The notes beneath the pieces are model-generated. The model was not told where the DNA came from. It saw only the letters and a list, made by a program, of their open reading frames with translations, and made no database searches. The position numbers were made by a program, and so were the translations under genes. Shown one piece after another: positions 19,871-20,844 of a DNA stretch of 64,000 nucleotides (within the stretch, counting starts at the first letter, position 1; every line of letters starts with the position of its first letter). The stretch lies in the NCBI RefSeq assembly GCF_003334815.1, contig NZ_QOWO01000017.1; one strand, 5' to 3'. The DNA is from Escherichia coli. Its GTDB lineage: Bacteria; Pseudomonadota; Gammaproteobacteria; Enterobacterales; Enterobacteriaceae.

Positions 19871-20021
19871 ATTTGATCCTCGTTATTATCAACCGCGGGC
19901 CTACCTTACCTGATTGCGCATTCACAACGCTTTCAGAAAAGTCCATAAAGCCGCGATGAACCTCAGTTAAGAAAATTATGGTCTACACTGAAAATTACAT
20001 CGAATTCTAATGGGGGATCAT

Positions 20022-20351
20022 ATGTTTAACCGACCGAACCGCAACGACGTTGATGATGGCGTGCAGGATATCCAGAATGATGTCAATCAATTAGCTGACA
20101 GCCTCGAATCTGTATTGAAGTCCTGGGGCAGCGACGCCAAAGGGGAAGCTGAAGCCGCACGCAGTAAAGCTCAGGCATTGCTGAAAGAAACCAGGGCGCG
20201 AATGCATGGTCGTACTCGCGTCCAGCAAGCCGCGCGCGATGCCGTTGGCTGCGCGGATTCTTTTGTTCGTGAAAGACCCTGGTGTAGCGTGGGTACAGCA
20301 GCTGCGGTAGGTATTTTTATCGGCGCACTGTTAAGCATGCGCAAATCGTAG
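20022..20351 (+). CDS. ygaM: ElaB/YqjD-family membrane-anchored protein
   Basis: MFNRPNRNDVDDGVQDIQNDV..., C-terminal TM anchor; the ORF track starts 4 codons earlier at 20010. Confidence 0.8.
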   Translation: MFNRPNRNDVDDGVQDIQNDVNQLADSLESVLKSWGSDAKGEAEAARSKAQALLKETRARMHGRTRVQQAARDAVGCADSFVRERPWCSVGTAAAVGIFIGALLSMRKS

Positions 20352-20382
20352 TGCAAAAATGATAATAAATACGCGTCTTTGA

Positions 20383-20412
20383 CCCCGAAGCCTGTCTTCG
20401 GGGTTTCTTTTT
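20383..20412 (+). terminator. Rho-independent terminator after ygaM
   Basis: Stem CCCCGAAG/CTTCGGGG followed by TTTCTTTTT. Confidence 0.65.
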
Positions 20413-20598
20413 GCCTGGTGAATCACAAAAATCCCCCTACCCCGTCACGCTCATATCCAGGGTAATTTCGACCACTATTTGCTATATATTGTGTGGTTGA
20501 ATCTTTTTTCAACTACATCTAGTATCTCTGTATCAACAGAGAGACAACCCGACGCGTATCATCGCGCCGTATCTTCATTTTAAACGGAAATACGAATC

Positions 20599-20844
20599 AT
20601 GCGCATTACTATTTACACTCGTAACGATTGCGTTCAGTGCCACGCCACCAAACGGGCGATGGAAAACCGGGGCTTTGATTTTGAAATGATTAATGTCGAT
20701 CGCGTTCCTGAAGCGGCAGAAGCGTTGCGTGCTCAGGGCTTTCGTCAGTTGCCGGTAGTGATTGCTGGCGATCTTAGCTGGTCTGGTTTCCGTCCGGACA
20801 TGATTAACCGTCTGCATCCAGCGCCACACGCGGCCAGTGCATGA
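20599..20844 (+). CDS. nrdH: Glutaredoxin-like protein NrdH
   Basis: 81 aa, CVQC redox motif. Confidence 0.95.

Follow-up and report, generated by a model that had tools for sequence, protein, structure and literature searches.

The manganese ribonucleotide reductase operon nrdHIEF is a textbook case of control by both NrdR and Fur. Fur regulation of the Escherichia coli operon was reportedly described by Vassinova and Kozyrev in 2000, McHugh in 2003, and Martin and Imlay in 2011. The NrdR operator of the same operon is said to have been predicted by Rodionov and Gelfand in 2005 and worked on by Torrents and colleagues in 2007. Binding of E. coli NrdR to the nrdHIEF promoter has been followed by MST on a 57-bp probe that comprises two 16-bp boxes, a 15-bp spacer between them and 5 bp of flank at either end, and a cryo-EM NrdR-DNA complex was obtained on the same sequence. 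With ATP and dATP, NrdR binds nrdHIEF DNA with a KD of 138 nM. The KD, 130 nM for the intact operator, becomes 69,000 nM or more when either box is mutated, and in vivo the wild-type 15-bp spacer (the natural helical phasing) is required for repression.

Fur has been mapped in E. coli by ChIP-exo (Seo, 2014; Gao, 2023) and by ChIP-seq (Banerjee, 2020). nrdH is a member of the core Fur regulon, and deletion of fur gives it a log2 fold change of 3.1-7.9 in nine of nine E. coli strains; in CFT073, the deletion de-represses nrdH 68-147-fold. The best Fur site of nrdHIEF was credited with only 10.1 bits, its position not being given (Chen et al., 2007). The nrdHIEF operon of Salmonella Typhimurium is reported to have a distal Fur box, 309 bp 5′ of its start site, that is functional by mutagenesis and gel shift (Panosa et al., 2010).

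Here we consider the DNA upstream of nrdH in a 64,000-nucleotide stretch of an E. coli genome (the window). The region is already known and little in it is new. The best explanation as a whole, to which we give a probability of roughly 0.8, is that it is the known K-12 nrdHIEF promoter with two NrdR boxes and with Fur acting close to the promoter, the Fur-like string AATGATAATAAAT further upstream being a chance match or at most an accessory site. That string had been singled out in the original prediction as a candidate Fur box.

The ygaM-nrdH interval and its NrdR operator

Around 20352-20598 the sequence is 100% identical to that of E. coli K-12 MG1655, the genes being annotated as ygaM, nrdH, nrdI and nrdE; a window position is the NC_000913.3 position minus 2,780,124. 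The interval itself is the entire 247-bp intergenic region from ygaM to nrdH, that is, the 3′ end of ygaM joined to the known K-12 nrdHIEF promoter (Table 1).

Table 1. Features of the ygaM-nrdH region, in window coordinates
Feature	Position	Strand	Remarks
ygaM	20010-20351 (ORF)	+	NC_000913.3 2800146-2800475
ygaM stop codon TAG	20349-20351	+	ends the ygaM ORF
Fur-box-like 19-mer AAAAATGATAATAAATACG	20355-20373		ygaM 3′ flank; contains AATGATAATAAAT (20358-20370)
ygaM intrinsic terminator	20381-20412	+	10-bp stem and 5-nt loop (hairpin 20381-20405), then T-run; from a terminator scan
C-rich element AAATCCCCCTACCCCGT...CTCAT	20429-20458		5′ of the promoter and NrdR box 1; conserved columns in the 81-sequence alignment
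Upstream Fur ChIP-exo footprint, MG1655	20447-20481		peak P87, NC_000913.2 2798593-2798627
NrdR box 1 TTGCTATATATTGTGT	20479-20494		published probe layout, exact match in the window; matrix rank 1
Putative -35 hexamer TTGAAT	20497-20502	+	between the two NrdR boxes; 17-bp spacing to TAGTAT; 86% mean conservation
NrdR box 2 CAACTACATCTAGTAT	20510-20525		published probe layout; matrix rank 3
Putative -10 hexamer TAGTAT	20520-20525	+	final six bases of NrdR box 2; 74-79 bp 5′ of the nrdH ATG
Putative nrdHIEF 5′ untranslated region	20532-20598	+	start near A20532, deduced from the -10 position
Fur-occupied region GGAAATACGAATCATGCGCATTAC...	20586-20626		overlaps the nrdH ribosome-binding site and start codon
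nrdH coding sequence	20599-20844	+	first gene of nrdHIEF; ATG at 20599

The published 57-bp NrdR probe aligns with zero mismatches to window positions 20474-20530. A matrix trained on the four nrdAB and nrdDG boxes only, with those of nrdHIEF left out, scores box 1 at 12.4 bits and box 2 at 11.5 bits, the first and third highest values among the approximately 64,000 window positions. As a pair at an offset of 31 bp they reach 23.9, the top of the window, against 15.5 for the next pair and a maximum of 21.6 in 100 simulated windows. Both 16-bp boxes fit the gammaproteobacterial consensus acaCwAtATaTwGtgt. Their centres are 31 bp apart and the spacer is 15 bp, within the 31-32 bp and 15-16 bp, respectively, that are expected of boxes separated by whole helical turns. 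An offset of 31 bp is likewise that of the best pair in all 79 Enterobacteriaceae species compared, at -118 to -122 from the ATG, and box 2, including TAGTAT, is 96-100% conserved in 81 sequences. With the putative TTGAAT in the spacer and the putative TAGTAT inside box 2, the pair would overlap the core promoter, an arrangement that the literature describes for NrdR box pairs.

The nrdHIEF NrdR operator in this DNA is confirmed, and it is already published. The original prediction had caught one half of it. The AT-rich string CTATATATTGTGTGG, proposed as a possible NrdR box, is present at 20482-20496, one base away from where it had been placed, and overlaps the established box 1; it is shifted by three bases relative to the published box and extends into the conserved GG before the -35 hexamer. 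The obligatory box 2 had been missed. Scanning with an NrdR matrix, which had been suggested as a check, bore out the choice of region, as the ranks given above attest.

A tetramer of NrdR carrying ATP and dATP binds the two 16-bp boxes, whose centres are three helical turns apart, as the literature shows for this exact sequence. With the putative -35 hexamer between the boxes and the putative -10 within box 2, NrdR bound there would be expected to block transcription when dATP is plentiful.

A few other elements of the interval deserve mention. A generic scan for sigma-70-like promoters returned a sole match, TCAACA-18-TATCAT (20533-20562), whose poor conservation led us to reject it as the main promoter. 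Equally poorly conserved is a perfect inverted repeat, CTCTGT-ATCA-ACAGAG (20526-20541), across the presumed transcription start. In the nrdH leader, a GC-rich hairpin, GACGCG-TATCAT-CGCGCC (20550-20569), has conserved stems and a variable loop in the 81 sequences; as an RNA structure it was set aside, the fold of the leader giving z = 0.29 against shuffled controls. The C-rich element (20429-20458) is kept in both gene arrangements found in E. coli (see below) and in other genera. IscR is reported in the literature to regulate nrdHIEF, and inspection by eye of 20429-20470 for an IscR type-2 site (AxxxCCxxAxxxxxxxTAxGGxxxT) found no acceptable match. Finally, a reading of the ygaM 3′ flank as a small RNA was discarded, the Rfam matches being below threshold (anti-hemB at 20.7 bits with a gathering score of 49.5, and MicA at 23.2 with a gathering score of 41).

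Position of Fur at nrdHIEF

The published peak tables, which we used in place of raw reads and which for MG1655 are in NC_000913.2 coordinates, locate Fur close to the promoter. In MG1655 the ChIP-exo peaks map to 20447-20481, 20597-20626 and 20607-20615. W3110, W, BL21, Crooks and 042 have one ChIP-exo peak each, between -3 and +20 from the ATG. The CFT073 peak, from an independent ChIP-seq study, is centred at ATG+19 and, with a height of 849, is among the strongest of that study. Taken together, eight mapped ChIP datasets from seven strains have Fur summits at -3 to +28 of the ATG. These occupancy data, the expression changes upon fur deletion and the NrdR binding data in the literature uphold the statement, made in the original prediction, that the class Ib RNR operon is regulated by iron and by NrdR.

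For scoring Fur sites we used a symmetric 19-bp matrix, started from the consensus and refined iteratively, that comprises 18 sites from 17 Fur-regulated intergenic regions of MG1655. The matrix recovered the classical boxes of fhuA, tonB, sodA, fepB and others, and its training sites score 11-22 bits. The start-codon region (20586-20626) holds in K-12 two matches, of 7.3 and 4.3 bits, whose starts are 6 bp apart and whose scores are below the training range. Across species, the best Fur match within -400 to +45 is at -13 to -1 in 69 of 79, and it amounts to 10-13.7 bits in 20 of the 79. In 81 distinct sequences, conservation is about 98% over the 16 nt before the nrdH ATG and the first codons (AACGGAAATACGAATCATGCGCATTAC), as compared with 64% for the rest of the leader and 90% for the nrdH codons; ACGAATCATGCGC is part of this invariant stretch.

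The upstream footprint (20447-20481) scores 2.9 bits in K-12 and 5.9-10.7 bits at the homologous position (-136/-138) in some other strains and species. Cendra et al. (2012) cite the 8-mer CGTAATCA as the Fur box of Vassinova and Kozyrev. In strains such as 042 and Sakai, this 8-mer occurs at about -135, which is also the position of the footprint.

The conservation around the ATG could have a different origin. Start regions are often conserved for translation, and control at the level of translation or RNA (through the ribosome-binding site or pairing with an sRNA) might account for it, leaving Fur only at the upstream footprint by NrdR box 1. This reading would accommodate the modest K-12 score at the ATG and the location of the historical 8-mer at about -135 rather than at the ATG. 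It conflicts, however, with the summits of all eight ChIP datasets and with the scores of at least 10 bits at the ATG position in 20 species, and the upstream position on which it would depend is poorly conserved (0.44 mean identity). We consider it improbable. From the ChIP positions, the conservation and the weak 6-bp-phased motif, we infer instead that Fur acts at promoter-proximal DNA, mainly at 20586-20626, and in addition at 20447-20481.

According to the literature (ChIP and expression in fur deletions), it is iron-loaded Fur that represses nrdHIEF. The main site would cover the nrdH ribosome-binding site and start codon, and the second would be just 5′ of NrdR box 1. Repression would then proceed through two sites flanking the core promoter, for which occlusion, a roadblock or looping are all conceivable. 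AATGATAATAAAT would probably be dispensable for Fur control of nrdHIEF.

The Fur-like 19-mer beside ygaM

AATGATAATAAAT is present in the window, one base from where the original prediction had put it. With the last base of the ygaM stop codon at 20351 and the hairpin at 20381-20405, the string is between the stop codon and the terminator; it had been described as following the terminator, which it in fact precedes. The 19-mer that contains it (20355-20373) is real as a motif match. It scores 13.1 bits and ranks fifth among 63,982 window positions, above the threshold in the matrix scan that had been suggested as a check, and first-order Markov simulations of the window lead one to expect 1.1 ± 0.95 matches of at least this strength per 64 kb. 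The 19-mer has 13 of 19 matches to the Fur consensus GATAATGATAATCATTATC, and its 9-bp AATGATAAT core is perfect. Plain counting of consensus matches was uninformative, as sequences with at least 13 of 19 matches to GATAATGATAATCATTATC are found 28 times in the window, and the matrix was used instead. By sequence alone, the 19-mer is the top Fur candidate of the intergenic region, at 13.1 bits vs. 7.3 and 4.3 at the ATG and 2.9 at the upstream footprint.

How much such a score says about occupancy can be gauged from the rest of the window. The strongest single match (19.2 bits) is at 7901-7919, inside ygaQ, and the next strongest form a 6-bp-phased pair of 17.2 and 17.15 bits at 5878-5902, between ileY and the ygaQ pseudogene. 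There is no MG1655 Fur ChIP-exo peak on either, the closest reported peak being at 6611-6624. Motif strength is therefore no predictor of occupancy here. The divergent ygaC-ygaM region (19871-20009) is absent from the 30 best Fur-matrix matches in the window, the lowest of which has 8.7 bits.

The 19-mer is 124 bp 5′ of the putative -35 hexamer, at about -177 to -159 from the presumed start, and the ygaM terminator intervenes. The published ChIP-exo tables for MG1655, W3110, W, BL21 and Crooks have no Fur peak over it; in MG1655 the closest peak is 74 bp away. The accuracy of these tables can be judged from the training set, in which 12 of 18 Fur boxes are at most 10 bp from a peak. For ryhB and mntH, by contrast, the distance from the canonical or best Fur box to the peak is 105 bp and 74 bp, respectively, so that the tables are not base-accurate. 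Because ChIP-exo peaks are occasionally displaced by about 100 bp, a gap of 74 bp does not strictly exclude Fur at 20355-20373.

The 19-mer also differs from the start-codon site in its distribution. None of 79 species has a counterpart, taken as a match that scores 10 bits or more and is over 150 bp upstream. The nearest cryptic-clade Escherichia has 3 changes in these 19 positions vs. about five in the remaining 150 or so aligned bases. A functional nrdHIEF reporter that is said to include both the NrdR and the Fur sites begins at -143 from the ATG; AATGATAATAAAT, at -241 from the nrdH ATG, is outside this 143-bp fragment.

An insertion/deletion polymorphism between ygaM and nrdH amounts to a natural experiment on the question. 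Of 5426 complete E. coli genomes, 1389 (26%), including 042, O157:H7 Sakai and CFT073, have two genes that separate the nrdH promoter from the ygaM terminator. The two genes form a divergent pair that encodes a MocR/PdxR-like regulator of the PLP-aminotransferase family and a carboxymuconolactone-decarboxylase (AhpD-like) protein. In these genomes the terminator remains with ygaM, and so does an identical 19-mer, about 2.1 kb from nrdH. Overall, the 19-mer is linked to ygaM in 5038 of the 5426 genomes, irrespective of the downstream genes. In 042, Sakai and CFT073, in which the box is about 2 kb away, Fur binding and regulation at nrdH are retained, as judged from comparative evidence. In the window the junction is at 20412-20476. 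Homology to K-12 also ends immediately 5′ of NrdR box 1 in E. albertii, Citrobacter and S. enterica subsp. diarizonae.

Very probably, then, 20355-20373 is not the Fur operator of nrdHIEF and belongs to the 3′ flank of ygaM, because it is distal and before the terminator, linked to ygaM, unconserved, free of a ChIP peak, outside the reporter and dispensable in 042, Sakai and CFT073. As a functional nrdHIEF Fur box, the string of the original prediction is unsupported.

A more favorable view of AATGATAATAAAT is that in K-12-type strains it serves as a genuine auxiliary Fur operator, oligomerization or looping over about 90-240 bp to the proximal sites deepening repression. Its score is within the bona fide range, and the possible displacement of ChIP-exo coordinates leaves some room for Fur there. 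There is also precedent in Salmonella, for which a distal functional Fur box of nrdHIEF is reported and a second shifted band in gel shifts suggests more than one site. Nevertheless, MG1655, W3110, W, BL21 and Crooks have no peak on the site, a terminator separates it from the promoter, it is unconserved beyond E. coli and diverges more than its flanks in the closest relative, and strains in which it is 2 kb off are still strongly repressed by Fur. The fold change in 042 would even be the largest of the nine strains, provided that the columns are ordered as in the locus-tag table. We regard an auxiliary operator as unlikely. A more specific version is that the arrangement of K-12-type strains (about 74% of E. 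coli) put a 13-bit Fur box about 125 bp 5′ of the nrdHIEF -35, where the distal site cooperates with the weak proximal ones. Iron control of the Mn-dependent reductase would then be tighter at the K-12-type junction than in the other arrangement. This version we hold to be very unlikely.

The linkage to ygaM, whatever is downstream, raises another prospect, namely that 20355-20373 binds Fur for the sake of ygaM or of local chromatin, either as a roadblock where ygaM ends or as one of many non-regulatory Fur sites in A+T rich DNA. Hundreds of Fur-like clusters, many of them intragenic, were described genome-wide (Chen et al., 2007), and the neighboring ygaC was picked up and proposed as Fur-regulated by Vassinova and Kozyrev. 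On the other hand, the ygaC site has only 1.4 bits and its binding of Fur is extremely weak (Chen et al., 2007), and the 19-mer is without a ChIP peak, as are, in the MG1655 ChIP-exo data, the stronger matches at 7901 and 5878. Such a role seems very unlikely. The promoter-proximal placement of Fur remains the reading that we prefer.

Comparison with known systems

The canonical Fur boxes, such as those of fhuA, fepA-fes, cirA, sodA and ryhB, have scores comparable to the 13.1 bits of the 19-mer. They overlap the -35/-10 of their own gene and coincide with ChIP-exo footprints, 12 of 18 to within 10 bp, whereas the 19-mer is in a 3′ flank, before a terminator and without a footprint. A caution follows from the present locus, where the best-scoring Fur motif of the intergenic region is not the place of the Fur signal in vivo. 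What comparative genomics and published ChIP favor is a site at the start codon that matches weakly but is invariant.

The -309 box of Salmonella Typhimurium is the closest parallel to the 19-mer, being likewise a Fur-like 19-mer far 5′ of a class Ib RNR promoter. The Salmonella box is supported by experiment, whereas 20355-20373 is known here as a sequence match. A search for a homologous site, or one at a comparable distance, with 5.5 bits or more gave none in S. enterica subsp. diarizonae and only one of 8.4 bits, at -186, in subsp. arizonae.

With respect to NrdR, the DNA is the same as that of the published E. coli nrdHIEF operator, from which it shows no difference (Rozman Grinberg et al., FEBS J 2025; Shahid et al., Mol Microbiol 2025). 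With respect to Fur, the operon and the regulator are again those already described, and the published occupancy is not at 20355-20373 but at the start codon and by NrdR box 1.
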